DNA of 64,000 nucleotides from an uncultured Gemmatimonadaceae bacterium. Lineage in GTDB: Bacteria; Gemmatimonadota; Gemmatimonadetes; Gemmatimonadales; Gemmatimonadaceae. Below the pieces are notes generated by a model. The model ran no database searches, had not been told where the DNA came from, and saw only the letters and a program-made list of their open reading frames with translations. The translations under genes were made by a program, and so were the position numbers. Shown one piece after another: positions 36,601-52,827 of this stretch; the stretch's first letter is position 1, and each line of letters starts with the position of its first letter. The stretch lies in assembly GCA_963817955.1 (NCBI GenBank), contig CAWFQK010000002.1, positions 32,001 through 96,000 on the forward strand, given 5' to 3'.

Positions 36601-38984
36601 TCGCGGCGCGCGGTGTAGCGCCAGGCGGTCCCGGGATTGCCCCTCGCTGGACGTCCAGCGCCAAGGCAGGCGTTGGCACGGCACTCGGCGCGCGCAGCAT
36701 GGTCTGGTTCACCATCTCGCATGGCATCGTGAACGAGGTCTACTACCCGCGCGTCGATCAGGCCGACATTCGCGACATGGGCATGATCGTGACCGCCGAG
36801 CCGGACTTCTTCGCGGAAGAACAGCGGCACACGCATACGGCGCTCGACCTGATCGCGCCCGGCGTGCCGGGATTTCACGTCACAAATACGTGTGCGCGCG
36901 GCCGGTTTCGTATTCACAAGACGCTGATCACCGATCCCGATCGCGACGTCCTGCTGCAAGCCACGGAGTTCGTGCCGGTGATCGGTTCGCTGGACGATTA
37001 CCGCTTGTTCGTCCTGCTCGCGCCGCACCTCGCGAATCAGGGAGAGGGCAATGATGCGTGTGTCGGCGAGTACAAGGGCATTCCCATGCTGTTCGCGCAG
37101 CGCGAGAGCGCCGCACTGGCACTGAGTTGCTCGGCGGACTTTGCCGCGCTGAGCTGTGGCTACGTCGGCGTGAACGACGGTTGGCAGCAGCTTGCGCGTG
37201 CCCGTCATTTGACGGAATGTTATGCCGCTGCGCACGACGGGAACGTTGCCGTGACGGCCGAGATTGATCTCAGCCACAGCAACGGCCGCTTCGTCCTGGC
37301 ACTTGCATTCGGCCGTGATCAGGACGAAGCGGCCCATGCGGCGCGCGCGTCGTTACTCGCGGACTTCAACGACACGTGCAACAGCTTCGTCGCCGGATGG
37401 CGGTCGTTCCACGCTCGTTCGCGGCGGCTCTCGCACAACGACGACATCGCGACGGAGTACGGACTCAGCGTGGCGATCTTGCAGTCGCATGAAGACAAGG
37501 TTCGTCGGGGCGCATTCATCGCGAGCCTCTCGATCCCGTGGGGCAACGAGCGCGGCGATCACGACCTGGGCGGATACCATGTAGTGTGGCCGCGCGATCT
37601 CGTCGAGGTCGGCGGCGGGCTCCTGGCCGCGGGCCACACGGACTCGGCGCGCTACGCCCTGCATTACCTCATGACCACTCAGGAGGCCGACGGCCATTGG
37701 CCGCAGAACATGTGGCTGGACGGACGCGCCTACTGGACCGGCAATCAACTCGATGAAACAGCGTCCCCCATTCTGCTCGCCGATCAACTGCGTCGCCGCC
37801 GCGCCCTCGAGAGCTTGAATGTATGGCCGATGGTCCGCCGCGCCGCGGGATATCTCGCTCGCAACGGTCCCGTGACCCCGGAGGACCGATGGGAGGAGGA
37901 CGGCGGCTACTCCACGTTCACCCTCGCTGTCGAGATCGCGGCGCTGCTCGCGGCCGCCGACTTTGCCGATCTCGAGCACGATGAAGCGGCCGCGAGATAC
38001 CTCCGGGAGACGGCGGACATCTGGAATTCGTCGCTCGAACGATGGCTCTATGTCACCGGCACCGCCCTCGCCGCACACGTTGGCGTCAATGGCTACTACG
38101 TCCGTCTTGCACCGTCAACCGTTCGAGACGGCGACTCCACGATCGCCGTAGCCAATCAACCCCCTGGTAGCGACCGAATACGCTATGACGACATGGTGAG
38201 TCCGGACGCCCTGGCCCTGGTCCGCTTCGGCCTTCGCGCGGCGGACGACGAGCGGATTCTGAACACGGTGCGCGTCATCGATCGCCTGTTATGCACGGAC
38301 ACCCCCACCGGGCCGATCTGGCACCGGTATAACGACGATGGATATGGCGAGCACGAGGATGGTGCGAGCTTCGACGGCACGGGTATCGGACGGGGATGGC
38401 CGCTGCTCGCCGGCGAGCGAGCACATTACGAGCTCGCCGCCGGCCGCGCGGATCGCGCGGCCCACCTGCTCGAAGTCATGCGACGACAGACGGGGCTTGG
38501 CGGGCTCATACCTGAGCAGGTGTGGGACGCTGCCGACATCCCCGAGCAAGGTTTGATCGCCGGCTGCCCGACCGGCTCCGGCATGCCACTCGTGTGGGCG
38601 CATGCCGAATTTGTAAAGCTCGCGCGATCGCTTCACGACGGCCGCGTCTTCGACACGCCGCCGCAAACCACGAAACGCTACATCAGGTCGCGGATCCCAT
38701 GCCGGATGGCGACATGGCGATTCAACAACAAGATCCGCGCGATCGCGTCTGGACACAGCCTTCGGCTCGAAGCACAGGCTCCGTTCATGGTCCACTGGTC
38801 CGTCGACGCGTGGCGCTCCCCTCAAGACAGCGAGGGAACCGACACCACGTTGGGCATGTGGTTTGTCGATCTACCGACCGACTCACTTCCCGTGGGCGCT
38901 GCCGTGTCCTTCACGTTCTATTGGCCCGAAGCTCGCCGCTGGGAGGGAACAGACTTCGTCGTGCGAATCGAAGACCGGCCATAG
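36597..38984 (+). CDS. GH15 glucoamylase/glucodextranase
   Basis: APGGPG..WT..K.GVG, VWPRD, DRWEE, LIPEQ, PLVWAHAE. Confidence 0.93.
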   Translation: MIAARGVAPGGPGIAPRWTSSAKAGVGTALGARSMVWFTISHGIVNEVYYPRVDQADIRDMGMIVTAEPDFFAEEQRHTHTALDLIAPGVPGFHVTNTCARGRFRIHKTLITDPDRDVLLQATEFVPVIGSLDDYRLFVLLAPHLANQGEGNDACVGEYKGIPMLFAQRESAALALSCSADFAALSCGYVGVNDGWQQLARARHLTECYAAAHDGNVAVTAEIDLSHSNGRFVLALAFGRDQDEAAHAARASLLADFNDTCNSFVAGWRSFHARSRRLSHNDDIATEYGLSVAILQSHEDKVRRGAFIASLSIPWGNERGDHDLGGYHVVWPRDLVEVGGGLLAAGHTDSARYALHYLMTTQEADGHWPQNMWLDGRAYWTGNQLDETASPILLADQLRRRRALESLNVWPMVRRAAGYLARNGPVTPEDRWEEDGGYSTFTLAVEIAALLAAADFADLEHDEAAARYLRETADIWNSSLERWLYVTGTALAAHVGVNGYYVRLAPSTVRDGDSTIAVANQPPGSDRIRYDDMVSPDALALVRFGLRAADDERILNTVRVIDRLLCTDTPTGPIWHRYNDDGYGEHEDGASFDGTGIGRGWPLLAGERAHYELAAGRADRAAHLLEVMRRQTGLGGLIPEQVWDAADIPEQGLIAGCPTGSGMPLVWAHAEFVKLARSLHDGRVFDTPPQTTKRYIRSRIPCRMATWRFNNKIRAIASGHSLRLEAQAPFMVHWSVDAWRSPQDSEGTDTTLGMWFVDLPTDSLPVGAAVSFTFYWPEARRWEGTDFVVRIEDRP

Positions 38985-38996
38985 GAACCTTGGACC

Positions 38997-39647
38997 ATGG
39001 CTGCGCTCTTTCCGCCCTGGGCAAATGTGCTCGCGCGAGGTTCGCTCATCGCCGCGGCCATTGCCCTCGTCGGCCTGCCCGTCGCCCTCATGGCGTGGGT
39101 GCGCACGCCCAACGCGGTCCGTCGATACCAGCCTGTCGCGCAACCGGTTCCGTTCGATCATCGCGTGCACGTCACCGGCGAACACATCGATTGTCGGTAC
39201 TGTCACTTCTCCGTCGAGCGCTCATCGACCGCCGGGATCCCGCCGACGGTCACGTGTATGCCCTGTCACAGTGAGACCTGGTTGAGCTCGAGCACCCTGG
39301 CTCCGGTACGCCGAAGCATGGAGACGAATCAGCCCCTGCGCTGGAATCGCGTGACGTCGCTGCCCGGCTTCGTCTATTTCAATCACGCGATCCACGTCAA
39401 CAAAGGCGTTGGATGTGAGACCTGTCACGGTCGCGTGGACCAGATGGGCGCGGTCTATCAGGCCGAGCCGCTGACGATGAACTGGTGCGTGTCGTGTCAT
39501 CGCGATCCTGCCGCGCAACTTCGGCCGCTCTCGGAGATCACGGCGATGGGCTACGTGCCCGCCGAATCACAACGCACCCTGGGTAGCCGCCTCGTTCGCG
39601 AGTATCACGTGCGGCAGTTGACCAACTGCTCCACCTGCCACCGGTGA
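38997..39647 (+). CDS. actA: Alternative complex III pentaheme cytochrome c
   Basis: TM anchor, five CxxCH (CRYCH, CMPCH, CETCH, CVSCH, CSTCH). Confidence 0.93.
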   Translation: MAALFPPWANVLARGSLIAAAIALVGLPVALMAWVRTPNAVRRYQPVAQPVPFDHRVHVTGEHIDCRYCHFSVERSSTAGIPPTVTCMPCHSETWLSSSTLAPVRRSMETNQPLRWNRVTSLPGFVYFNHAIHVNKGVGCETCHGRVDQMGAVYQAEPLTMNWCVSCHRDPAAQLRPLSEITAMGYVPAESQRTLGSRLVREYHVRQLTNCSTCHR

Positions 39648-39651
39648 GCGC

Positions 39652-42507
39652 ATGCACCATCACGATCCCCATCATGACCATGACCATGACCACGACCACG
39701 ACCACGACCATGACGACGATGTAACGCGCCGAAGCTTCCTCAAGGCGGCGCTCGGCGCGAGCATGGCGGCGCTCGCCGGTCTTGATGGGTGCACGCGCAT
39801 GCCAGCGGAGAAGATCTTCCCGTATGTCAACCAGCCGCCCGAGCTGACACCCGGCGTTGCGGTACACTACGCGACGTCAATGGTGCTCGACGGGTATGCG
39901 ACCGGGCTGATCGTCGAAGCACATGAAGGCCGGCCGACGAAGATCGAGGGGAATCCCGACCACCCCGCCAGCCTCGGTGCGTCCGGCATGCTCGAGCAGG
40001 CATCGCTGCTGCAGCTCTATGACCCGGACCGCGCGAGTCGCGTGCGATCCGGATCGTCAACGGAGAGTTGGCCAGCCTTCGCGTCGGCAATGGCCCCCTC
40101 GGCATTGCGGCCACGCGTCGGCGCGCGAGGCGCAGGGTTGGCATTGCTGCTCGAGCCAACCTCGTCGCCACTCATTGCCGCGCGAGTCGACGCACTGCAC
40201 ACGATCTATCCCGACATGCGCGTCTTCTACTACGCGCCCTTGCAAGCGGGCACCAGCGATGCGGCATTCACGAGTGCCGGCGTGATCCCGCAATTCGCCA
40301 TTCGCGATGCCAGGGTCATCCTCAGCGCCGGATCGGACTTCCTCGCCACGGGTCCATTCCATCTTCGTTACGCACGCGACTTCGCCGATGGACGACGCGT
40401 TCCGGCCAGTGGCATGAACCGGCTGTACGTAGCGGAGTGTGATTACACCGTGACGGGAGGCGCGGCGGACCACCGACTCCCGTGTCGACCGGAAGATCTC
40501 GAGTCCCTGCTGGAGTCTGTGCTCACCCTCCTACGTGGCGGCACCGGCACGTCAGCGTGGAGCACTGCCGTGGGCGCCGACTTGAAGGCGAATGCCGGGC
40601 GAAGCCTCGTCATTGCCGGTGAACGCCAACGCCCGCGCGTGCACGCGCTCGTCGCAGCGATCAATGATACGCTTGGCAACACGGGACGAACCGTTTGGTT
40701 CACGCGATCGTTGCTCCCGGGTGCGGGTGAGGCGAACGCGTCGATCTCCGCATTGGCCGGCGCCATCGCTGGTGGCGGGATCGACACGCTCGTGTGCATC
40801 GGCGGCAATCCGTCATACGCGACCCCGGGCGCGCTGCAGTTTTCGACGCTGCTCCGCCGCGTGCCGAACACCGCGTACGTCGGGCTCTATGAGAACGAGA
40901 CTGCGCGCGACTCCAAATGGTTCGTACCCGCCTCGCATTATCTCGAATCGTGGGGCGACGCGCGCGCCTACGATGGCACGTACTCCATCGTTCAGCCCCT
41001 GGTCCAACCGCTTCACGGCGGCAAGTCACCAGCCGACGTGCTGTCCGCATTGGCGGGCCAACCTTCGGTCGATTCCCGCGTGCTGCTACGCGATGTCGCA
41101 TTCAAGAATGATGTCGAGGCGACGGACGCGGGTTGGGCGGCCGCGCTCGGTCGCGGATTTGTCGTTGGGCCGGCGCTTTCGCACGTCACGGCTGTCCCGC
41201 GTGCCGAGTTGCTCATGCCAAGAGGCGGCACGGCAAGTGAAGCCGGCGCCCTCACGATCGTCTTCGAGCGAGACGCACGGGTGCACGATGGGTCGTTTGC
41301 CAACAACGGATGGCTGCAGGAGCTCCCGGATCCGATCACCAAGCTCACGTGGGACAACGCGGCGCTGCTGAATCCTCGAGACGCCGGGCGACTGGGGGTC
41401 TCGACCGGCGACGTCGTCCAGTTGTCGCACGGCAGTGCTTCGCTCCGCATACCAGCGATCGTCGTCCCCGGACACGCGGCAGGCGCGGCGACGGTGCGTT
41501 TCGGGTACGGGCGAGCGGGAGCGGAGTCCGTGGCGCGCGGTGTAGGTGTGAATGTCAACGTCCTGTGGCCAGCCCCGGACATGTTCGTGCTGAGCGACGT
41601 CGCGATCGCTCGGGCACCGGGTGGCGAACATCACGACTTCGCGATCACGCAATGGCATTGGACCATGGAAGGGCGCGGCCAAGCGAGAGAGGGTACGCTC
41701 GCGGCGTACCAGGCGGGGCATGGCGCGAACGTCAGGCGACAGCGACGTACGCTCACGATCTATGATCCGCCGCACCGTCTGGACGCGCCTCAACAGTGGG
41801 CGATGACGATCGATCTCGGGACCTGCATCGGCTGCAGCGCCTGCGTCGTGGCCTGCCAATCAGAGAACAACATTCCCGTCGTCGGTCCGGAGGATGTCGC
41901 CAAGTCTCGCGAGATGCAATGGCTCCGCATCGATCGCTACCTCGAAGGTCCCGAGGATGATCCGCGTGCGATCACGCAGCCGATGCTCTGCCAGCATTGC
42001 GAGAATGCGCCGTGCGAGTACGTGTGCCCGGTGGGCGCCACGACACACAGCGCCGATGGACTCAACGAGATGGTGTACAATCGATGCGTCGGCACGCGGT
42101 TCTGCTCGAACAACTGCCCGTACAAGGTGCGGCGCTTCAACTGGTTTGACTACAACGCACGCCTGAGCGAGACGGAGCAGCTCGGCAAGAACCCGGACGT
42201 CACGGTGCGCGAACGCGGCGTGATGGAGAAATGCACGTTTTGCGTGCAACGCATTCGCGAGGCAGAGATCGCGTCCGGAATTGACGGCCGGCCTCTCCGC
42301 GGGAGCGAGGTCAGGACGGCGTGCCAGCAGGCTTGTCCAACGAACGCGATCGTGTTCGGGTCCCTCACCGAGCCTGATTCTCCAGTCGTCCGCCAGCGCG
42401 ACGACCCGCGGGCGTATGCCGTGCTCGCCGAGCTCGGCACTGTTCCGCGCATCGAATACTTGGCCCGTGTGCGCAACGTGAACCCTGCATTGGAGCCGCG
42501 CGCGTGA
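39652..42507 (+). CDS. actB: Alternative complex III molybdopterin-like/FeS subunit
   Basis: TRRSFLK Tat motif, [53 protein letters not shown]. Confidence 0.93.
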
Positions 42508-43925
42508 GTATCGCCGTCCGACCCGTATCGGGATCCTCCACTCATGGCAGCGATCAGTGGCCGGTGATGCGTGGCCAACCGGCGGCGGGGGCGCTGACAG
42601 ACCATCTCCTCGCCCCCTTATGGCGCACATCGCCGGCCTGGTGGTTTCTCTTCGGCCTGTCGTCGCTGGGCACGCTGCTCCTGCTCGTGACCGTCACGTA
42701 CACGGTTGCGAGAGGAATTGGCGTCTGGGGCAACAACATCCCGGTCGCATGGGCGTTCGCGATTACGAACTTCGTCTGGTGGATCGGGATCGGTCACGCC
42801 GGCACGTTCATCTCGGCATTTCTCATCCTGCTCAACCAGCGTTGGCGCGGCTCCATCAATCGCGTCGCCGAGGCGATGACGATCTTCGCGCTCGTCAACG
42901 CGGCGCTGTTCCCGGTGCTGCACCTCGGACGGCCGTGGTTCTTCTACTGGCTCGTTCCCTACCCGGCCACGATGAACGTGTGGCCGAACTTCAAGAGTGC
43001 GTTGCCGTGGGACGTCTCGGCGGTCACGACGTACTTCACGGTGTCACTGCTCTTCTGGTATCTCGGGTTGGTGCCGGATCTGGCGTCGGCGCGCGATACG
43101 GCGCCGACGCGGGCCAAGCGGCTCATCTACGGCGTGTTTGCCATGGGCTGGCGCGGTTCCAGCTTTCAGTGGCAGCGGCATCGCGTGGCCTACATACTGC
43201 TCGCGGGCCTTGCTACCCCGCTCGTCATTTCGGTGCACAGCGTCGTGAGCCTCGACTTCAGTATCGCGCAGTTGCCTGGCTGGCACTCGACGATCTTCCC
43301 GCCGTACTTCGTCGTCGGTGCCATCTACTCCGGGCTGGCGATGGTATTCGTGCTGTTGCTGCCGGTGCGCCGCGCGTTTGCGTTGCATGACATCATCACC
43401 AAGGCGCACCTCGACGCAATGGCCAAGCTGATGCTGACGATGGGCCTCATGCTCACGTACAGCTACGTCATCGAGACGTTCATGGCGTGGTACAGTGACA
43501 ACGCGGCCGAACGATACACGTATCTCATTGCTCGCCCGGCAGGTCCGTACGCCATCGCCTATTGGATCATGACTGTGCTCAACGTCGGTACGCCTCAGCT
43601 CTTCTGGGTGCGCCGGTTTCGCACGAGCCCTGCGGTCTTGTTCGTCGCCTCGATCGGCATTCTGGTCGGCATGTGGATGGAACGGTTCATCATCATCGTC
43701 ACGTCGCTCAATCGCGACTTTCTCACGTCGAGCTGGCACCTCTACGTGCCAACGTGGGTGGACTGGGGCATCCTTACGGGTAGTCTCGGACTGTTTGGCT
43801 TCCTGTTCCTCCTGTTCGTGCGGTTCGTTCCGAGCGTGGCGATCAGCGAAGTGAAGGCACTGAGTATCAAGCTCGCCGCTAGCGCCGCTGCAGCACAGCG
43901 CGCCGGGAAGCCGAACGATGCGTGA
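42504..43925 (+). CDS. actC: Alternative complex III NrfD-like quinol-binding subunit
   Basis: [26 protein letters not shown]. Confidence 0.93.
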
Positions 43926-44457
43926 TCGAACGTGGAGCAGTGGCGCCTATCTCGCCGAGTTCGGGTCGGCAGACGAGGCTCGGCGCGCCATCCAGGCGCT
44001 CGAAGAACATGGCTACACAGGCATCGAGACGTATTCGCCCGTCCCGATCACGCACGGGCTGAAGCAGAGCAGGTCTCGACTTCCCATAGTGGTCTTTCTC
44101 GCCGGACTGGGCGGCGGCATCGCGAGCTATGCAATTCAATGGTATGCCGACGCCTACGCGTACCCACTCGACATCGGCGGCCGACCCGCCCACGCCGTTC
44201 CCGCCTTCATCATTCCGACGTTCGAGGGCACGGTACTGTGCGCAGCACTTGCTGCTTTCTTTGGATTCTTCGTCATCACACGACTGCCGCAGCCATATCA
44301 TCCCGTGTTCGAGATCGATGGATTCGAGCGCGCCACCGTCGATCGCTACTGGATCGCAGTCGATGCAGCCGATCACCGCTCTTCTCCGGACCTGACCCCG
44401 CGGGAGCTCTATCGGCTCGATCCGCTTCGAGTGGTCACGCTCGAGGCCGCGACATGA
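43918..44457 (+). CDS. actD: Alternative complex III subunit (DUF3341)
   Basis: YSPVP..GL, IGGRP..PAF..PTFE. Confidence 0.9.
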
Positions 44458-45098
44458 CCCGAACGCTGCGCTGGCCGGTCGTGATCCTTGTCGCGCTCGT
44501 GGCAGGATGTACAGCGTCCCGCGAACGCGAGCGCGTCGACTTCGAGCGAATGCGTATCCAGCAACGATACGGCCTGTACGGCGCGAGCAGGGTCTTTTCC
44601 AACGGGCAGAGCATGCAGCAGCCACCAGCAGGGACGGTGAGCCGTGAGGCAGCAGCACAGATGCTCAGCACCGGCATAGATGAAGCGGATTCAGCGTCCA
44701 CAGTCAGCGTGACCACCATTCCCTTGCCTGTGACACCGGCCTTGTTGGACCGCGGCCGAAACCGCTTCGCCATCTATTGTGCAGTGTGCCACGGCGCGGG
44801 GGGCTTTGGAGGCAGCCTCGTCGCGGCGAACATGGGCCAGCCACGTCCGCCGTCGCTGCGCACGGCCATGATGCGCACGCATCCAGTGGGATACATCTTC
44901 GGTGTGGCAACGCACGGCAAGGGGCGCATGCCCCCGTACGCGCCGCAACTCACGCCTGACGATCGCTGGGCGATTGTCGCGTACATTCGGCAACTGCAGG
45001 CGACTGGAGCGCTGACGCCTGACGAACGCGCCGACTCGCTCCGCGCCCAACAACTCCGTACGATCGATTCGATCGCGGCGGCGGAGCGTCCGCGATGA
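44454..45098 (+). CDS. actE: Alternative complex III monoheme cytochrome c lipoprotein
   Basis: ATG 44454, lipobox VAGC, CAVCH, GRMP, DRWAIVAYIR. Confidence 0.9.
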   Translation: MTRTLRWPVVILVALVAGCTASRERERVDFERMRIQQRYGLYGASRVFSNGQSMQQPPAGTVSREAAAQMLSTGIDEADSASTVSVTTIPLPVTPALLDRGRNRFAIYCAVCHGAGGFGGSLVAANMGQPRPPSLRTAMMRTHPVGYIFGVATHGKGRMPPYAPQLTPDDRWAIVAYIRQLQATGALTPDERADSLRAQQLRTIDSIAAAERPR

Positions 45099-46255
45099 AG
45101 GCCCCGCTGCCGACATCATGGATCCGTGTTGCGCTCGTTGGCGCAATCTGCATGATCGTGGGTTTCATCGTCGCGCCTGCGCGCGCAGCCGCCGCCTACC
45201 TCGTCGCGTATGGTGCCTGCGTCGGCGTGGCACTCGGCGCGCTGGCCCTCGTGATGATCGCGCGAGTCACAGCCGCCAATTGGTTCGTTGCCATTCGCCG
45301 GCAGGCGGAGCAGATCATGGCGACCTTGCCGGTGTTTGCGCTGCTGCTCATACCGGTGCTGCTGTCGAGTCGTCTCCTCTACCGATGGACCGCGCCGAAT
45401 GAGCGGCTGCCCGAAACGACTCGCGTGGCGGTTCACGCCACGGCGGCGTATTTGAACACCCCGTTCTTCGTGGTGCGAGCGCTCGTCTATTTCGGCGTAT
45501 GGATACTCATTTCCACGTTGCTGCGGCGTGCCTCGCTGGCACAGGATCGCGGGGATTCGCCGGCGCTCGAGCGACGCATGTACGTGGTGAGCGCCATCGG
45601 GTTGGTCGCGTTTGCGTTCACCGTGAGCTTCGCGGCCTTCGACTGGTTCATGTCATTGTCGCCAGGATGGTACTCGACGATTTACGGCATCGATTACTTC
45701 GCCGGGGCCATGGTCGGCGCGCTGGCACTCGTCACCGTTATTGTCGCGGCCGAGCGCCGCCATGGCGTGCTGCCGTCTGAGATCGGCTCCGATCACTTCC
45801 ATGCGCTTGCCAAACTGCTGCTCACCTTCGTGTTGTTCTGGGTCTACATCGGCTTCGCGCAATTGATCGTGATCTGGAGCGCTGAGATCCCCGCAGAGCG
45901 CGGCTGGTACGCATTGCGCATGCGTGGCGGTTGGCGCGTACTCGGCGCGATCGTGCTGCTCGGCCACTTCGCCCTTCCCTTCTGTGCGCTGCTCGTCCGC
46001 GCCATCAAACGCAGCCCAAGCGCGATGGCGATCATTGGGGCGTGCCTGCTCGTCGTGCACTATCTCGACATGTATTGGGTGGCCATGCCCGACGCGCCGT
46101 TTACCGGCGGGTGGGGTGTGGCGCTCGACGCTGGCGCATTGCTGTTCATCGCCGGCACTGCCGGTGCCACATGGGTGATACGGCGTGCCGGCGAGCCGAG
46201 CGTCGCCGAGGGCGATCCGCGATTGCCCGACTCGCTCCAGTACTCCGTCGAATAG
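45095..46255 (+). CDS. actF: Alternative complex III membrane subunit
   Basis: YLN.PFF, DWFMSL.PGWYST, Q..VIW...P.E. Confidence 0.88.
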   Translation: MKAPLPTSWIRVALVGAICMIVGFIVAPARAAAAYLVAYGACVGVALGALALVMIARVTAANWFVAIRRQAEQIMATLPVFALLLIPVLLSSRLLYRWTAPNERLPETTRVAVHATAAYLNTPFFVVRALVYFGVWILISTLLRRASLAQDRGDSPALERRMYVVSAIGLVAFAFTVSFAAFDWFMSLSPGWYSTIYGIDYFAGAMVGALALVTVIVAAERRHGVLPSEIGSDHFHALAKLLLTFVLFWVYIGFAQLIVIWSAEIPAERGWYALRMRGGWRVLGAIVLLGHFALPFCALLVRAIKRSPSAMAIIGACLLVVHYLDMYWVAMPDAPFTGGWGVALDAGALLFIAGTAGATWVIRRAGEPSVAEGDPRLPDSLQYSVE

Positions 46256-46264
46256 AGGCTGGCG

Positions 46265-46765
46265 ATGAAGGTGAGGCGCGCGCTCTTTTCCGGTGTCATC
46301 GGATCCGTACTCGTCCTGATTCTCGTGTGGATGGGCGGCAGGCTCGGCGACGCCGACGCCGACCTCGCGGCATTGACTGCCGCTGTGCTGTTCCGAAACG
46401 CCGCTGGCGCCGCTTGGGTCGGAGGGTTCGTCGCACAACTCATCGTCGGCGCGATCGCCGGCGTGGTGTACTGCGGAATCTTCGAGCTCGTGACCGAGCG
46501 CGCGGGTGCGTGGATCGGCCTCGCGGTCGCGATTCCGCACGCGATCATCGCGGGCCTCGCCGTCGGCTTTCTGCCGGCACACCGGATGCTCGATGCAGGC
46601 GTCGCGCCTCCGGGTGCATTTTATGAGTTTCGTGGTGCTTGGTGCATCGCGGCCTTCGTGCTCGCCCACCTTGCGTTTGGATGCTCGATCGGCGCCATGT
46701 ATGGGCAAACGACACACACCTACGCTCGCGTGCGACGGCATTGGGCCGAGGCGTCACGCGTCTGA
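46265..46765 (+). CDS. Hypothetical multi-TM membrane protein
   Basis: About four hydrophobic helices, two intramembrane His, GAGG RBS. Confidence 0.7.
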   Translation: MKVRRALFSGVIGSVLVLILVWMGGRLGDADADLAALTAAVLFRNAAGAAWVGGFVAQLIVGAIAGVVYCGIFELVTERAGAWIGLAVAIPHAIIAGLAVGFLPAHRMLDAGVAPPGAFYEFRGAWCIAAFVLAHLAFGCSIGAMYGQTTHTYARVRRHWAEASRV

Positions 46766-46780
46766 TGAGGCTCGGCGGGT

Positions 46781-46796
46781 CGGTATGCTTTTTGTA
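46781..46796 (+). promoter_or_regulatory. Sigma54-like promoter (-12 GT variant)
   Basis: CGGTATGCTTTTTGTA; near-identical to 30778. Confidence 0.55.
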
Positions 46797-46858
46797 CATC
46801 GACGGTTCTCGCCGCAACCCGGCACTTCCACCCGGGCCTGCCGCTTTGGAGCGCTATC

Positions 46859-48757
46859 GTGACATCGATTGCCGACCGGATCAGTGAGGATGATCTCGCC
46901 CTCGAGCACCGACTCACCGATCTGTGGCAAACACCGCACAATTGGCTTGGGTGGCTGTCCACGGTCGATCACAAGACGCTTGGCAAGCGGTACATCTATA
47001 CGGCCTTTGGATTCTTCTTCCTCGGCGGTGTCGAAGCCACGATCATGCGCACCCAGTTGGCGCGCCCGGACAATCACCTCCTGTCACCCGGCGTGTACAA
47101 CCAGCTCATGACGATGCACGGCGTGACGATGATGTTCCTCTTCGTTCAGCCGGTGCTCTCGGGCTTCAGTTTCTATCTCACCCCGCTGATGATCGGTGCG
47201 CGCGAGTTGGCGTTTCCGCGGTTGAACGCGTTCAGCTATTACGTGTTCCTGCTCGCTGGCGTGTTCATGTACGCGAGCTTCGCCGTTGGACAGGCCCCGA
47301 ACGCCGGATGGTTCAACTACACCCCGCTCGCGAGCGTGAACTACAACCCCGGCTTCAACATCGACTTCTACTGCCTGGGACTGATGTTCCTGGGGATCGC
47401 GACAACCGTCGGATCCGCGAACTCGATCGTCACGATTCTCAAGCTTCGCGCGCCTGGCATGTCGATCGACCGCATGCCGCTGTTCATGTGGAGCTCGTTG
47501 ACGGTATCGGTGGCGGTGATCTTCTGCATGCCCCCACTCACCGCCGCGCTCGGCTTCCTCGAGTTGGAGCGCCGCTGGCACTTCGTGTTCTTCGACCCCA
47601 CGCATGGCGGATCTGCACTCCTCTGGCAGCACCTCTTCTGGGTGTTTGGTCATCCGTGGGTGTACGTCGTATTTCTGCCGGCCACGGGAATGCTCTCGAT
47701 GGTCATTCCCACGTTCTGCCGTCGGCCAATGGTCGGACACGTCTACATGGCTCTGGCGACGGTCGCGACTGGGCTGATCGGCTTCGGCGTATGGGTTCAC
47801 CACATGTTCGCGACCGGACTGCCGCAACTGTCCATGAGCTTCTTCGGGGCCGCGAGCATGACCGTCTCCATTCCCAGCGCGGTCACGATCTTTGGCTGGC
47901 TGGCCACGATGTGGTACGGCCGCGTGGTGTTCGCCACGCCAATGCTGTTCGCAATGGGGTTCATCTTTCAGTTCGTCATCGGAGGTATCAGTGGTGTGAT
48001 GACGGCCGCCGTGCCGTTCGATTGGCAGGTGACCGACACCTACTTCATCGTCGCGCACATTCACTACGTTCTCGCCGGCGGCACGCTGTTCGGCGTGATG
48101 GCGGCGATCTACTACTGGGCGCCGAAGATGTTCGGCGTCATGATGAGCGAAGCGCTCGGGAAGCTGAGCTTCTGGCTGATGTTCATCGGTTTCAACGTCG
48201 CCTTTTTTCCGATGCACATCAGTGGGCTCATCGGCATGCCACGCCGCGTGTACACCTACAGCGCCGCCAGCGGGTTCGCGTCGATGAATCTGCTCTCGAC
48301 GATCGGGACCTATATCCTCGCCGTCGGACTCCTGGTCACGCTCTGGAACTTCATTCGGAGCCGTCTCGCGGGCGCCCCCGCCGCCAGCAACCCATGGGGT
48401 GCGGCGTCGCTCGAGTGGCTCACGGCATCACCACCAGAGCATTTCGACTTTGCTCATATTCCTGTCGTTCACTCGCGTGAGCCACTCTGGGATGGCGGCT
48501 ACTCGCAAGGGCCCGCCTTTGACGAGGCGCGGCTCACGCCGCGCACGTCCGCGCTCGACGCGACGCTCGAGGAGCCGGTGGTGATGCCGACCGACAGCGT
48601 GTGGAGCATCCTCATGCCGTTCACCCTGCTGCTCGCCTGTGCGGCGCTGCTCGTGCATTCGTACACCTGGGCAGCGATCGGAGCCGCCGCGACTCTAATC
48701 TGCATGGCGCGCTGGATGTGGCCGAGTTCCGCGCGGGTGCTGAAGACTGAAGTATGA
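46859..48757 (+). CDS. ctaD: Heme-copper oxidase subunit I (atypical A-like)
   Basis: DHK, MHG, GHPWVY, VHHM, AHIHY, GMPRR; two extra C-terminal TMs. Confidence 0.93.
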   Translation: MTSIADRISEDDLALEHRLTDLWQTPHNWLGWLSTVDHKTLGKRYIYTAFGFFFLGGVEATIMRTQLARPDNHLLSPGVYNQLMTMHGVTMMFLFVQPVLSGFSFYLTPLMIGARELAFPRLNAFSYYVFLLAGVFMYASFAVGQAPNAGWFNYTPLASVNYNPGFNIDFYCLGLMFLGIATTVGSANSIVTILKLRAPGMSIDRMPLFMWSSLTVSVAVIFCMPPLTAALGFLELERRWHFVFFDPTHGGSALLWQHLFWVFGHPWVYVVFLPATGMLSMVIPTFCRRPMVGHVYMALATVATGLIGFGVWVHHMFATGLPQLSMSFFGAASMTVSIPSAVTIFGWLATMWYGRVVFATPMLFAMGFIFQFVIGGISGVMTAAVPFDWQVTDTYFIVAHIHYVLAGGTLFGVMAAIYYWAPKMFGVMMSEALGKLSFWLMFIGFNVAFFPMHISGLIGMPRRVYTYSAASGFASMNLLSTIGTYILAVGLLVTLWNFIRSRLAGAPAASNPWGAASLEWLTASPPEHFDFAHIPVVHSREPLWDGGYSQGPAFDEARLTPRTSALDATLEEPVVMPTDSVWSILMPFTLLLACAALLVHSYTWAAIGAAATLICMARWMWPSSARVLKTEV

Positions 48758-49323
48758 GTACTCTCAAGTCGCAGGTCGGCTGGTGGGGCATGGTCATCTT
48801 TCTCCTCAACGAGGGGGCGCTCTTCGCGTCACTGCTCGCCAGCTACTTCTATCTCGGCCTCGCGAACGCATTCTGGCCCCCCGCGGGAACACCGAAACCG
48901 GGGCTCACGCTGCCGCTCATCATGACGGCCGTCCTGCTCTCCAGCAGCGTCGTCTGCATCCTCGCCGAGCGAGCGCACACCCGCGGCAACAAGCCCGCGT
49001 ACCGGGCCGGCACGCTCGCGACCATGCTGCTCGGCCTCGTCTTCCTGCTGATCCAGGCGCGCGAGTACCACAATAAGCTCCAGCATGCCGGCCCAACCGG
49101 CCATGCGTACGAATCGATCTTCTTCACGATTACGGGCCTGCACGGGGCGCACGTCGCGTTTGGCCTGCTGTTCCTGGGCTGGGCGTTGCTGCGCGAGTGG
49201 CGCGGCACGGCGCCGCCTCGCCGCTCGCTCGCGATCAAGAATGCGTCGGCCTATTGGCACTTCGTCGACGGCGTGTGGCTGGCAATCCTGACGTCGCTGT
49301 ACCTCTCGCCGCGTTGGTACTAG
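48754..49323 (+). CDS. ctaE: Cytochrome c oxidase subunit III (short form)
   Basis: FLLNE, TGLHGAHV, YWHFVD. Confidence 0.92.
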   Translation: MSTLKSQVGWWGMVIFLLNEGALFASLLASYFYLGLANAFWPPAGTPKPGLTLPLIMTAVLLSSSVVCILAERAHTRGNKPAYRAGTLATMLLGLVFLLIQAREYHNKLQHAGPTGHAYESIFFTITGLHGAHVAFGLLFLGWALLREWRGTAPPRRSLAIKNASAYWHFVDGVWLAILTSLYLSPRWY

Positions 49324-49332
49324 GAGCCGCTC

Positions 49333-49761
49333 ATGACTGCCTCGCAAGCAACGCATGAAGCACGGCTGCAGGACCTGCCCGTCGGACTCACACGCTTGTG
49401 GGCTGGCGTTCTTGCCGCACCAATCGCTTGGGTCTTGATGGAAATGGTCGGCTACTATTTGGCAGCGCGGAGCTGCGAGCCGGGCACCGGCGGCGTTCCC
49501 TTGCTCGGCACCGCCGCGCCGCGCGTCACGCAGGTGGTGTTGGACGTCGTCGCGCTCGCGGCGGCGGTGTTTGGCCTGGTGCTCTCGATCGGAAGCCGGC
49601 GTGCCCTACAGCCGCAGCCCCCCCGTGACTCGACACCCGAACAGGGCCGCGCCCATTTCATGGCGCTCGTCGGTGTCTTCACGAGCGCACTCTTTATCGG
49701 CGGAATCGTCCTGTTCGGCATCCCGCCCTTTCTCGTGAACGCCTGCAGCCAGGCCCGCTGA
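49333..49761 (+). CDS. Hypothetical 3-TM protein of the oxidase cluster
   Basis: AGGAG RBS, AP.AW, two Cys, three TMs. Confidence 0.75.
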   Translation: MTASQATHEARLQDLPVGLTRLWAGVLAAPIAWVLMEMVGYYLAARSCEPGTGGVPLLGTAAPRVTQVVLDVVALAAAVFGLVLSIGSRRALQPQPPRDSTPEQGRAHFMALVGVFTSALFIGGIVLFGIPPFLVNACSQAR

Positions 49762-50921
49762 TGATCGCGGCCGCGTTGGCGCTGACGGCGCTCGTCTATG
49801 CACTTGGGCTGAGGGCCGCGTGGACGCGTGCCGGGAACGGGCGCGGTATCACGCGAGCGCAAGCGGCAGTATTCGCGGCGGGGCTGTTCGTCATTGCGGC
49901 GGCATTGCTGTCACCCCTCGACGCCATGGCTGATGATTTGTTCTCCGCGCACATGGTGCAACACCTCCTGCTTGCCGTCGTCGCGCCGCCCTTGTTGGTA
50001 TTCGGGGCGCCGTTCACCGCGGTCGTCTGGGCACTGCCGTTCCACCGGCGCCTCGCGGTCGTCCGTTTCGTTCAGCGTCGGACGGCTCTGCGCGCGCTAT
50101 GGCTCACGATAACGGCCCCCCGCCTCGGCTGGCTCCTACACCTTGTTGCGATGTGGGCGTGGCACGCACCGGCGCTGTTCCAGATGGCACTGCATAACGA
50201 CGCCATCCACGCAGCCGAGCATCTGTCGTTCGTAGGCACCGGCGTGCTCGTTTGGTGGCCAATCGCTCATCCGCGAACGGCGCGCCGTACGGCATACGCG
50301 CTTGGCATCGCAACGCTGTTCCTGACCGCGATGCAGACCGGCGTGCTCGGCGCACTCATCGCACTGTCGCACCACGTGCTCTATCCCGCGCAGGCAGCCG
50401 GCGCCGCGCGATGGGGACTATCGGCCATGGACGATCAAACGCTGGCGGGACTGATCATGTGGGTGCCCGGTGGACTGCTGTACGTGGCGGCGATGAGCGT
50501 GTTGTTCGTGAAGTGGCTGCAGCCAGCGAAGCCACGTCATGCGCCTGCACGTCTCGCGCCCTCGCTCGCGAGTTCCATTCTGGTGATGATCGTCATCACT
50601 GCCACGGCGTGCTCGGGCACCGACGTGAGCGTCGTTCCCGGGGGAGACGTCAGCCGCGGCAAACACGCGATTGAAGCGACGGGCTGCGGCGCCTGTCATA
50701 CGATCAGCGGCGTTCCGAACGCACACGGCGAGGTCGGCCCCCCACTCACCGGCATCGCTCGGCGCTCCATCATCGCGGGCGAACTCGCGAACACGCCGGA
50801 CAACATGATACGCTGGATCCAGAATCCGCAGTCGGTCGAGCCGAACACGGCGATGCCGAACCTCGGTGTCAATGCGCAGGCGGCGCGGGACATCACGGCC
50901 TACCTGTTCACGTTGCGCTGA
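49761..50921 (+). CDS. ctaG: Caa3_CtaG assembly factor fused to a cytochrome c domain
   Basis: SAHMVQH, WH, EH, DQ..AGLIMW then CGACH...AMP in one frame. Confidence 0.85.
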   Translation: MIAAALALTALVYALGLRAAWTRAGNGRGITRAQAAVFAAGLFVIAAALLSPLDAMADDLFSAHMVQHLLLAVVAPPLLVFGAPFTAVVWALPFHRRLAVVRFVQRRTALRALWLTITAPRLGWLLHLVAMWAWHAPALFQMALHNDAIHAAEHLSFVGTGVLVWWPIAHPRTARRTAYALGIATLFLTAMQTGVLGALIALSHHVLYPAQAAGAARWGLSAMDDQTLAGLIMWVPGGLLYVAAMSVLFVKWLQPAKPRHAPARLAPSLASSILVMIVITATACSGTDVSVVPGGDVSRGKHAIEATGCGACHTISGVPNAHGEVGPPLTGIARRSIIAGELANTPDNMIRWIQNPQSVEPNTAMPNLGVNAQAARDITAYLFTLR

Positions 50922-50933
50922 GCGACGAGTGAT

Positions 50934-51924
50934 ATGATCCGGATCCGCCACGGTAGCGTGCTCCTGGCGCTGGTCGTCGCCACGTCGTGCGGAACGCCAC
51001 TGTCGATGTTTTCGACAGCGAGCGAGTCTGCGGAGCGCATCTCGAGGCTCGCATGGTTCATGATTGTCCTGTCCGCAGTGATCTTCGTCGCCGTGGTGGC
51101 GATCATGGCCGCGGCGGCGATCCGCAATCGGGCGCGCAATCCAGCGGACGTTGATCTCACCGATCCGGGCGCTGGGTGGATCGTTTGGGGCGGCGCGGTG
51201 CTGCCGGGCATCGTGTTGCTGGCAACCTTCACCGTCGCGATGGCGGCGATGGGCCGCTTTCCTGCGTCGCGGCCCGTTGTGACGATTCACGTCACGGCAC
51301 ACCAGTGGTGGTGGCAAGCGGATTATGAGTTCCCGCAAGTGTCCCAGCAGTTCCACACGGCGAACGAATTTCACATTCCGGTTGGGCGCCCGGTGCGCTT
51401 CATCCTCACCAGCGCCGACGTCATCCACAGCTTCTGGGTGCCACAACTGCAAGGCAAGCTCGACGTGATCCCGGGCGACACAAATGATCTTCGGCTCATT
51501 GCCAGGCGCGCGGGACGATACGCCGGCGCGTGCGCCGAGTACTGTGGAGCGCAACACGCACACATGGGGTTCACGGTGGTCGCCGAAGACAGCGCATCGT
51601 TCGCACGTTGGGCCGCCGGGCAGCTCGCCAATGGAGCGCAACCGAAGGATTCACTCACAGCCGAAGGGCAGAGGCTGTTCGTTACTGGTCCGTGCGCATC
51701 GTGTCACACGGTTCGCGGGACACCAGCGTTCGGACAAGTCGGGCCGGACCTCACACACGTCGGCGGTCGTCTCACGATCGCCGCGGGCACGCTGCCGAAC
51801 ACGCTCGGGAATATCGAAGGCTGGATCGCCAATCCCCAATCGCTCAAGCCGGAAACCAAGATGCCAACGTTGAACGTGTACACCGGAGCGCAACTTCGCG
51901 CCCTGGCCAGCTACATATCGAGCC

Positions 51925-51932
<8 letters not shown>
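50934..51932 (+). CDS. ctaC: Cytochrome c oxidase subunit II with C-terminal cytochrome c (caa3 type)
   Basis: QWWW, DVIHSFWVP, CAEYCGAQHAHM CuA motif, CASCH..KMP. Confidence 0.94.

Positions 51933-52827
<895 letters not shown>

Follow-up and report, generated by a model that had tools for sequence, protein, structure and literature searches.

A Conserved Clade of A-Family Heme-Copper Oxidases with Tryptophan at the D-Channel Glutamate Site and without the K-Channel Lysine

A-family heme-copper oxidases perform most aerobic respiration, and two residues of their subunit I, the D-channel glutamate E286 and the K-channel lysine K362 (Rhodobacter sphaeroides numbering), underpin nearly all mechanistic models of how this family delivers and pumps protons. 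Both are replaced in the product of coxI (ctaD), a gene found in a stretch of 64,000 nucleotides from an uncultured Gemmatimonadaceae soil bacterium (assembly GCA_963817955.1, contig CAWFQK010000002.1, positions 32,001 to 96,000; hereafter the window). The protein, named W-type here after the Trp that stands in place of the Glu, is most likely part of an active, accessory caa3-type cytochrome c:O2 oxidoreductase belonging to a distinct A-family subclade, judging from its residues, its relatives, and its gene neighbors. This is a widespread natural lineage without E286, without K362, without the subunit II Glu at the K-channel entry, and without the Tyr-Ser pair of the A2 enzymes, in which the O2 site and the mouth of the D-channel are retained, and it constitutes a natural test of how heme-copper oxidases work.

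The open reading frame (46859–48757, + strand) is stop-free and codes for 632 amino acids. The Pfam profile COX1 (PF00115) is matched across residues 41–486 (E = 2.6e-146), and the score with TIGR02891 (CtaD_CoxA) of NCBIfam, 670.8 bits, is just at the curated cut-off of 670.75. Alignment to QoxB-type profiles extends up to residue 616, and the C-terminus consists of two additional helices equivalent to the beginning of subunit III. Among solved chains, the closest is mycobacterial CtaD (7rh5_R, E = 2.8e-139; ∼50% identity over residues 33–548, with few short gaps), next comes the aa3-600 of Bacillus subtilis, the caa3 of Thermus thermophilus (2yev_A) is matched at E = 9.4e-131, and ba3 chains are matched at only ∼1e-11 (1ehk_A, E = 1.4e-11). 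Both by sequence membership and by position in the trees described below, the protein thus belongs to the A family of heme-copper O2 reductases. The alignment with 7rh5_R is gapless at the two motifs of interest, where FWFFGHPEVY corresponds to FWVFGHPWVY, and VPTGIKFFNW to IPSAVTIFGW.

The numbering of R. sphaeroides was transferred via a database protein (P0254) that has a constant offset of +8 to 1m56_A from residue 96 on. All six His ligands are present, as is the cross-link Tyr of helix VI, and they map onto those of R. sphaeroides (H102 = H87, H284 = H265, H333/H334 = H314/H315, H419 = H400, H421 = H402, and Y288 = Y269), as a preliminary description of this DNA had proposed. That description had also reported four changed sites, and each one was recovered: E286 is W267, its codon at 47657 reading TGG; K362 is T343, 78 residues past H265, with spacing and mapping in agreement; N121 is F105; and D132 is E116. 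Its statement that the D-channel Glu is absent holds, but the remaining D-channel is largely retained, with N139 = N123, S142 = S126, N207 = N188, Y33 = Y45, and a conservative change from S201 to T182. In the numbering of Paracoccus denitrificans (Pd), this corresponds to a D-channel set in which N199, N131, Y35, and S134 are identical, D124 (to E) and S193 (to T) are conservatively changed, and N113 (to F) and E278 (to W) are lost. In the K-channel set (Pd), K354 is T343 and T351 is S340, and S291 (S280) and Y280 (Y269) are retained. The absence of the K-channel Lys proved to extend to a second subunit: the K-entry Glu in transmembrane helix 2 of subunit II is found in none of 18 W-type loci, in none of 12 loci with Glu at position 286 and no Lys at 362 (E/non-K), and in all 38 canonical (E/K) loci, counting loci recovered by a CuA-motif filter, a set without the Burkholderiaceae loci. 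The loss of the K-path is therefore coherent over two subunits, since Lys362 is also missing from all 151 members of the clade.

The motif HPWVY is present in all 120 of the nearest cluster representatives at 90% identity (66–100% identical to the query), and the Lys position among these is Q in 61 and T in 40, the pattern being unmatched in 19. This excludes a chance origin and a sequencing error as the source of W267, and a pseudogene reading was rejected on the same grounds; the motif is, as its conservation suggests, under purifying selection. The 150 best cluster representatives at 50% identity are more diverse: HPWVY occurs in 8, HP[ED]VY in 105, and the A2 motif in 16, the remaining 21 having another motif or being fragments. 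Residue counts were made on a MAFFT alignment of 332 sequences, with 151 W-clade members, 88 canonical enzymes, and 62 Lys-less relatives. Every W-clade member has H284, H333, H334, H419, and Y288, while 150 have H421 (Q in one) and 147 have H102, with alignment gaps in the other four. Position 362 is never Lys; it is Q in 83, T in 49, A in 9, S in 5, G in 3, and otherwise in two, the A or G being found in Burkholderiaceae and in some alphaproteobacterial members. The Tyr-Ser pair of A2 enzymes is missing throughout, all 151 sequences having F at position 282 and either G (139) or A (12) at position 283 (F263-G264 here).

The lower D-channel contrasts with these losses, and W-clade members keep it better than their Lys-less relatives do. 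Among these members, N139 occurs in 147/151 (the other four are gaps) versus 36/62 of the relatives, N207 in 150/151 versus 25/62, and S142 in 146/151 versus 24/62. Y33 is found in 145/151 and Thr at position 201 in 150/151, while 147/151 have an acidic residue at position 132 (E in 123, D in 24). Residues R481, R482, and D407 of the exit and loading site are each retained in 150/151. Position 112, which corresponds to Q97, is Q in 119/151 of the W clade versus M in 72/88 canonical enzymes. Two subgroups can be distinguished: one (n = 128, including the protein in the window) has F110, Q112, F121, and E132, and the other (n = 23, with some Gemmatimonadales and all the proteobacterial members) has Y110, S/L/M112, N121, and D132.

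Helices II and IV are enriched in polar residues in the W clade. Helix II of the protein in the window has Q97, S101, and S104/F105 spaced i, i+4, and i+7/8 (own numbering), so that by helical periodicity they probably share one face; the R. sphaeroides number of S101 is uncertain (116 or 117) because of a one-residue gap in this stretch. Helix IV bears T182-T183, helix VIII has S333, S337, S340, and T343 spaced i, i+4, i+7, and i+10, and helix VII has T301 at a site that is M/T in canonical enzymes and T304 at one that is invariably I in them. A scan for W-specific positions (weighted conservation of ≥85% in the W clade against <15% in canonical enzymes) yielded R32, S120, W286, T323, S359, A365, R374, T401, W408, and two C-terminal positions. 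A membrane carboxylate that could compensate for E286 was sought among these residues, and none of them is an Asp or Glu within the membrane.

Two phylogenetic analyses place these enzymes. In a FastTree analysis of 213 sequences filtered at <85% identity (517 core columns), all 68 W tips form one clade with no foreign tip inside, with SH-like support of 0.70. An IQ-TREE analysis (LG+G4, 1000 ultrafast bootstraps [UFBoot]) of 68 sequences, thinned by identity from the 213 and including 13 W, 29 E/non-K, 16 E/K, 4 other, and 6 A2 outgroup sequences, recovers the 13 W tips as monophyletic (UFBoot 91). Their sister group (UFBoot 98) is made of an Acidimicrobiales sequence with Glu at 286 and Q at 362 (E/Q) and of an Actinomycetota sequence in which the Glu site is Leu and position 362 is Q. 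Outward from the W clade one finds more sequences with Lys replaced by Q (100 and 98) and then the canonical E/K enzymes, including the caa3 of the same genome (100). Rooted with A2 enzymes, the tree places the W clade within a Lys-less (K to Q) A-type lineage, and this branching order implies that Lys was lost first and Glu second. The suggestion in the preliminary description of a possibly uncharacterized subfamily fares well under the alignment, tree, and motif search it had called for: the clade is distinct and conserved, lies in no characterized clade, falls outside both A1 (the Glu is missing) and A2 (F263-G264), and carries its motif in several bacterial groups.

The surrounding Lys-less lineage is itself heterogeneous. 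Three further intact enzymes of this lineage lack the Glu (L020 with Leu, P0150 with Ala, and P0163 with Leu). Five others (P0153, P0169, P0182, P0211, and P0273) keep the heme a ligand H102 and have lost at least one CuB His as well as the Tyr, P0211 and P0273 additionally lacking H419; these may be proteins of other function derived from heme-copper oxidases, or decayed copies. In the sisters of the W clade listed as E/Q (L026 and L020), there is a buried Glu in helix VII at position 320, where the W clade has Thr (T301 in the window) and canonical enzymes have Met/Thr. This helix VII Glu may compensate for the Lys lost in that lineage.

The comparison with known enzymes shows features of several types combined in one protein. 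With A1 aa3/caa3 oxidases (R. sphaeroides 1M56, P. denitrificans 1AR1, mycobacterial 7RH5/6ADQ, and the host's own L001) the W-type enzyme shares the fold family (PF00115/TIGR02891), the six His, the cross-link Tyr, a CuA subunit II, a subunit III, N139/S142/N207/Y33, and R481/R482/D407; it differs from them by Trp286, Thr362, Phe121, Glu132, and the missing K-entry Glu of subunit II, and the A1 signature GHPEVY reads GHPWVY. With A2 caa3 oxidases (T. thermophilus 2YEV and Rhodothermus marinus) it shares the absence of a Glu at the D-channel end, the cytochrome c fused to subunit IIc, and the setting in an operon with alternative complex III (ACIII), which is the partner of the R. marinus caa3. 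The A2 signature YSHPxVY is not found, because the Tyr-Ser pair one helix turn ahead of the CuB His is missing from the W clade, and A2 enzymes retain K362. B-type ba3 oxidases (T. thermophilus 1EHK) resemble it in having no Glu at the E286 site (by the definition in PMC3084760), Thr at the Lys site, and Ser at the T359 site. They differ in that their sequence is distant, the W clade is nested in the A type, its D-mouth is kept, and S291 (Pd) is Ser and not the Tyr that is the third B-family marker. Of the features of nitric oxide (NO) reductases, the motif H-X-Arom-X-E is matched in its aromatic only, the second motif is absent, and the cross-link Tyr is present. Finally, the Lys-less A-family oxidases, such as the aa3 of the rus operon of acidophilic iron oxidizers and the classes of PMC8239418, have likewise lost both K354 and COX2 E78 (Pd), whereas the W-type enzyme additionally lacks the D-channel Glu or Tyr. 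That work (Degli Esposti 2021, PMC8239418) names "modified/KC/hybrid" K-channel classes and catalogues Lys-less A-type enzymes (supplementary table 3), its supplement states that no significant D-channel change was seen in its set, and its table lists Gemmatimonadetes entries with a full K-channel and, overall, no enzyme reported to be without the D-channel Glu or Tyr.

The nearest proteins to the W-type CoxI are, by their source names, from metagenome-assembled genomes (MAGs) of Gemmatimonadaceae and Gemmatimonadales. HPWVY occurs in 24 of 80 loci taken from species-representative genomes, a sample biased by its retrieval with query-derived peptide patterns. These loci come from MAGs of Gemmatimonadota; of Caulobacterales, Phenylobacterium, and Asticcacaulis; of Hyphomicrobiales and other alphaproteobacteria; and from Burkholderiaceae. 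Cultured carriers are Trinickia diaoshuihuensis, T. dabaoshanensis, Trinickia sp. NRRL B-1857, and Paraburkholderia kururiensis. A survey of genomes with a degenerate DNA pattern for W-x-F-[G/A]-H-P-W-V-Y found it in 25 of 401 sampled Gemmatimonadota genomes (this one included), the matches being confined to two families of one order (11/93 and 13/166, this genome excluded) and absent from the 141 sampled genomes of ten other families of the phylum. Of 121 genomes sampled in the family of T. diaoshuihuensis (Burkholderiaceae), 23 contain the same pattern, and the reversed-pattern control gave zero matches in both surveys. One 9.8-Mb assembly of the latter family (G476) has five matches, four of them on small contigs sharing an identical 27-base match, which could reflect a mixed-strain assembly or a repeated island.

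The host genome (4.53 Mb, 94% complete) has four COX1-family matches. One is a canonical caa3 subunit I (L001), with FGHPEVY and IPTGVKIF, adjoining a subunit II with CuA and cytochrome c. The genome also encodes a cbb3-type CcoN-CcoO fusion, three cytochrome b genes, a second ActB-like gene, and a heme A synthase (CtaA) gene. These additional oxidases and respiratory genes indicate that the W-type enzyme is one branch of a highly branched chain. Three carriers examined elsewhere encode 4, 6, and 5 COX1-family genes, which suggests that it is accessory there too. A short COX1-like fragment also occurs in the host (L004, C1:379766–380137), as a 188-aa open frame matching profile positions 3–143 (E = 3.9e-9).

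The gene context of the W-type oxidase varies among genomes. With neighbors called by tblastn (at least 40% query coverage, E ≤ 1e-8), a pyrroloquinoline quinone (PQQ) dehydrogenase of the methanol/ethanol type adjoins it in 13 of 24 loci and ACIII in 3; neither occurs within the DNA examined at 8 of the 24, and neither is found in any of 14 E/Q loci. Near-duplicate loci (L012/L013 and L014/L015) make these counts non-independent. The PQQ dehydrogenase of Phenylobacterium scores 589.9 bits on TIGR03075 (methanol/ethanol family; cut-off 480). The "XoxF3 systems" of Voutsinos et al. 2024 (PMC10875860) have the same gene set—CoxII, CoxI, CoxIII, a small hypothetical protein, and CtaG, together with a PQQ dehydrogenase—and the word "proton" occurs nowhere in the main text of that paper, which leaves proton channels undiscussed. 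The locus in the window differs from them: the module is joined to ACIII, and no PQQ dehydrogenase match is found in the host genome at its 94% completeness. In the PQQ-dehydrogenase-linked loci, the W-type oxidase would be the sole coupling site for electrons, by analogy with the established bioenergetics of methylotrophs.

These data bear on what the enzyme does. In favor of an active O2 reductase are the intact His-Tyr-CuB site, the domains for CuA and heme c, a CtaG of the caa3 type, and the strong purifying selection, and the tight operon with ACIII here and the PQQ dehydrogenases elsewhere argue for a real respiratory role. According to PMC11214002, loss of the Tyr marks NO reductases, and the Tyr is invariant in the W clade. 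The integrity of the gene, its residues and their conservation, the phylogeny, and the gene context are shown directly, and from them we infer the proton route, the electrogenicity, and O2 as substrate. For the route, we consider that there is an even chance of protons being taken up from the cytoplasm at the D-channel mouth and then handed on by a relay of water, hydroxyl, and amide groups, charge separation being kept and pumping reduced or lost. By analogy with known ACIII–caa3 systems, electrons would flow from menaquinol to ACIII (ActC, ActB, ActA, ActE), to the cytochrome c domain of CoxII, to CuA, to heme a, and to heme a3/CuB with its His-Tyr, where O2 would be reduced. The canonical K-path is dismantled (position 362 is T or Q, and the entry Glu of subunit II is gone), and Trp occupies the end of the canonical D-path. 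Protons would enter through E116, N123, S126, N188, Y45, and T182, and S104, S101, and Q97 on the helix II face together with T182-T183 on helix IV are the candidates for a carboxylate-free continuation; the sister subgroup has, in place of Q97, a Tyr at the V110 position. The near-invariance of the D-mouth and the retention of R481/R482/D407 favor continued cytoplasmic uptake over a channel-less enzyme. Of the two halves of the inference in the preliminary description, a nonpumping or a differently wired O2 reductase, "differently wired" thus appears to be the better one, pumping being undecidable from sequence alone.

Several observations weigh against this relay. Replacement of E286 or K362 nearly abolishes turnover in A1 enzymes, as mutants of R. 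sphaeroides and P. denitrificans show, so that a relay lacking any protonatable group is hypothetical. Gln itself cannot carry a proton. The placement of the side chains rests on helical periodicity and is accordingly putative, and F105, at the N121 position, could constrict the neck of the channel. Q97 is found only in 119/151 of the clade, the other subgroup having S, L, or M there and a Tyr two residues earlier. No expression or biochemical data for any W-type member were found in the literature search, and the Ser/Thr ladder of helix VIII offers a competing proton route. In R. sphaeroides, a Glu introduced at position 112 (E286A/I112E) has reportedly been found by Aagaard et al. in 2000 to stand in for E286; if this is true, Q97, which is at position 112, becomes especially interesting. 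It is doubtful, but conceivable, that the W-type enzyme still pumps, with neither a protonatable residue at the D-channel end nor the K-channel Lys. This would amount to a third, carboxylate-free "A3" solution to gating, and the glutamate "valve" that is central to current pumping models would then be dispensable.

The main rival to the relay from the D-mouth builds on the helix VIII ladder, and we regard it as unlikely. All protons would pass, as in B-type enzymes, through a single Lys-less analogue of the K-channel formed by S333, S337, S340, and T343 of helix VIII, T301 and T304 of helix VII, and Y269, the D-channel surviving as a structural relic that Trp closes. If ba3 is a guide, the enzyme would pump at about half the level of A1 enzymes and might bind O2 with higher affinity. 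B-type enzymes have Thr at K354 and Ser at T351 (Pd) according to PMC3084760 and PMC8239418 (supplementary table 3), which T343 and S340 match exactly, and in PMC11214002 the transition from A to B is described as a loss of the D-channel. The polar ladder is also conserved: in the W clade S352 and S359 are each present in 149/151, Ser at the A356 position has weighted frequencies of 0.81 and 0.58 in the two subgroups versus 0.92 for Ala in canonical enzymes, and Thr reaches 0.91 at position 320 and 1.00 and 0.91 at position 323. Yet the residue at position 362 itself is unconserved in the clade, and the entry Glu of subunit II, which is used by ba3 too, is missing. Moreover, the Tyr expected in a B-type enzyme at S291 is Ser (S280), and one would not expect a near-invariant D-mouth in a relic.

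A non-electrogenic O2 reductase, taking its chemical protons from the periplasm as cytochrome c-dependent NO reductases (cNOR) do, appears quite improbable. Its role could then be to scavenge O2, to balance the redox state, or to drain electrons quickly from ACIII or from dehydrogenases of the periplasm. Such an enzyme would agree with the loss of both canonical key residues and of the subunit II Glu, and a host with a canonical caa3 and a cbb3 could afford a low-yield branch. The NO reductase motif H-X-(Arom)-X-E given in PMC3084760 has an aromatic at the spacing of W267, a correspondence that would be suggestive if the two positions are indeed equivalent. Under such a scheme, however, the near-invariance of the D-mouth and of R481/R482/D407 would lack a purpose, no W-specific acidic residue lies on a periplasmic path, and the only coupling site would probably be squandered in the PQQ-linked loci (13/24).

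The same aromatic could be taken to indicate that the main substrate is not O2, for example NO or a peroxide-type chemistry, and proton channels are altered in several families of NO reductases too (PMC11214002). This is very unlikely, given that the cross-link Tyr and the three CuB His are invariant, that H-H-X-Arom-Arom-X17-E is not found (the sequence is HHMFA, with no Glu 17 residues on), that the Glu found in NO reductases at the Y288 position is absent, and that CuA, heme c, and a caa3-type CtaG indicate a copper enzyme. A decaying or inactive paralogue, which two replaced model-essential residues and two other oxidases in the genome might evoke, can practically be dismissed, as the frame is open with all ligands kept, the motif is in 120/120 nearest clusters, the clade spans several phyla and classes with conserved operon partners, and the surveys found it in 25/401 Gemmatimonadota and 23/121 Trinickia-family genomes with zero control matches.

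Some of the elements assembled here have been described before: Lys-less A-family oxidases, ACIII–oxidase operons, and XoxF3–oxidase clusters are already published, and the new part would be the W-type variant. No paper was found on A-family enzymes forming a clade in which Trp replaces the D-channel Glu and Tyr-Ser is absent, the search leaving out subscription-only literature, which may list it. The existence of soil bacteria in culture that carry it (Trinickia spp. and P. kururiensis) makes the minimum needs of heme-copper oxidases for moving protons testable by genetics and biochemistry. The variant matters, too, for how much energy is gained in two common branches of respiration in soils, one linked to ACIII and the other to lanthanide/PQQ dehydrogenases.

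In the window, coxI is part of a run of 11 genes on the + strand, from 38997 to 51932, in which gaps range from −4 to 12 bases with the exception of 93 bases ahead of coxI (Table 1). A scan of 38500–52500 found 0 promoter-like sites and 8 terminator-like sites, versus 7.1 ± 2.7 in shuffled sequences. The first part of the run provides the ACIII set: the ActA pentaheme, ActB, an NrfD-type pair (ActC and ActF), ActD, and the ActE monoheme, with ActD and ActE apparently fused. In solved ACIII structures, the NrfD-type ActC provides the quinol site. ActA matches a QrcA-like model of NCBIfam (E = 1.8e-22), under the cut-off of the model. The best solved relatives of ActB are B subunits of ACIII: 6lod_B (E = 5.7e-232), 6f0k_B, and 6btm_B (E = 1.8e-142), the record of the last being named "Alternative Complex III subunit B". 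The ActD/ActE fusion matches Cytochrome_CBB3/Cytochrom_C at residues 272–355, and ActF, which has no Pfam match, aligns with ActC over 293 positions (BLASTP, E = 2e-12). PMC5928083, which also lists the ACIII subunits, describes ACIII clusters followed by oxidase clusters and ACIII–caa3 supercomplexes, and PMC8407424 describes "superoperons" of ACIII and A2 caa3. Given these precedents, the arrangement is known, and it is the type of oxidase within it that is unusual.

Table 1. Genes of the ACIII–oxidase operon in the window and codons at key positions of coxI
Feature	Position	Strand	Basis or remark
ActA, pentaheme cytochrome c of ACIII	38997–39647	+	Five CxxCH; Pfam Cytochrome_C7
ActB, molybdopterin-like + 4Fe-4S ACIII subunit	39652–42507	+	Pfam Fer4, Molydop_binding
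ActC, NrfD-type membrane subunit	42504–43925	+	PF03916 NrfD, E = 3.2e-23; start overlaps ActB stop by 4 bases
ActD/ActE fusion, membrane part + monoheme cytochrome c	43932–45098	+	CxxCH at residue 283
ActF, second NrfD-like membrane subunit	45095–46255	+	27% identity to ActC; ∼nine hydrophobic segments
orf166, small membrane protein	46265–46765	+	∼four hydrophobic segments; between actF and coxI
CoxI (CtaD), W-type A-family heme-copper oxidase subunit I	46859–48757	+	Profiles, structure alignment, numbering
Q97 codon (R. sphaeroides I112 position, helix II, immediately preceding P98)	47147–47149	+	Alignment
F105 codon (N121 position)	47171–47173	+	Alignment
E116 codon (D132 position, D-channel mouth)	47204–47206	+	Alignment
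W267 codon TGG (E286 position)	47657–47659	+	DNA reads GGT CAT CCG TGG GTG TAC
T343 codon (K362 position)	47885–47887	+	Alignment
CoxIII, short form, last five helices of profile	48754–49323	+	PF00510 positions 78–255/258, E = 5.3e-28
orf142, small membrane protein	49333–49761	+	tblastn, ESM-Atlas neighbors
CtaG (caa3-type copper-insertion factor)–cytochrome c fusion	49761–50921	+	PF09678, E = 2.9e-56; PF00034; CxxCH at residue 309
CoxII, CuA + fused cytochrome c (subunit IIc)	50934–51932	+	TIGR02866, 160.5 versus cut-off 147.7

The second part of the run codes for the oxidase. The features of a caa3-type enzyme are found, namely CuA with a fused cytochrome c, CtaG, and a heme A synthase gene in the genome, the heme types themselves not being readable from genes. 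The translation of CoxII contains the CuA motif HSFWVP ... CAEYCGAQHAHM and the heme motif CASCH, and its best solved match is subunit II of the T. thermophilus caa3 (2yev_B, E = 2.5e-44, residues 42–332). The start of coxIII overlaps the stop of coxI by 4 bases. Neither Pfam nor NCBIfam has a family matching the small protein encoded by orf142, with the threshold relaxed to E ≤ 1. It was found by tblastn after coxIII in 6 of 24 W-type loci and in 2 of 14 E/Q loci (the loci with this arrangement being L005, L006, L007, L015, L018, L019, L020, and L032), and its nearest ESM-Atlas clusters are hypothetical proteins of ∼137 aa from Gemmatimonadota, Acidobacteriota, and Pseudomonadota. It fits the conserved hypothetical protein of ∼110–130 aa that lies between CoxIII and CtaG in PMC10875860. 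The product of orf142 is probably an undescribed fourth subunit of the oxidase or an assembly partner.

Other genes of the region have less common features. A heme c attached to a copper-insertion factor is unusual, and the whole CtaG–cytochrome c fusion is covered by tblastn in loci of Gemmatimonadales (L016 and L019) and Chloroflexia (L033 and L069). For orf166, no Pfam or NCBIfam family was matched even at E ≤ 1, and no tblastn match was found in the other loci; it could be a lineage-specific subunit of ACIII or of a supercomplex. Upstream in the window, 32633–35611 codes for a 992-aa GlcD-GlcF-like fusion of an FAD-linked oxidase with 4Fe-4S dicluster and CCG domains, and a glucodextranase-like gene stands between it and the ACIII operon.

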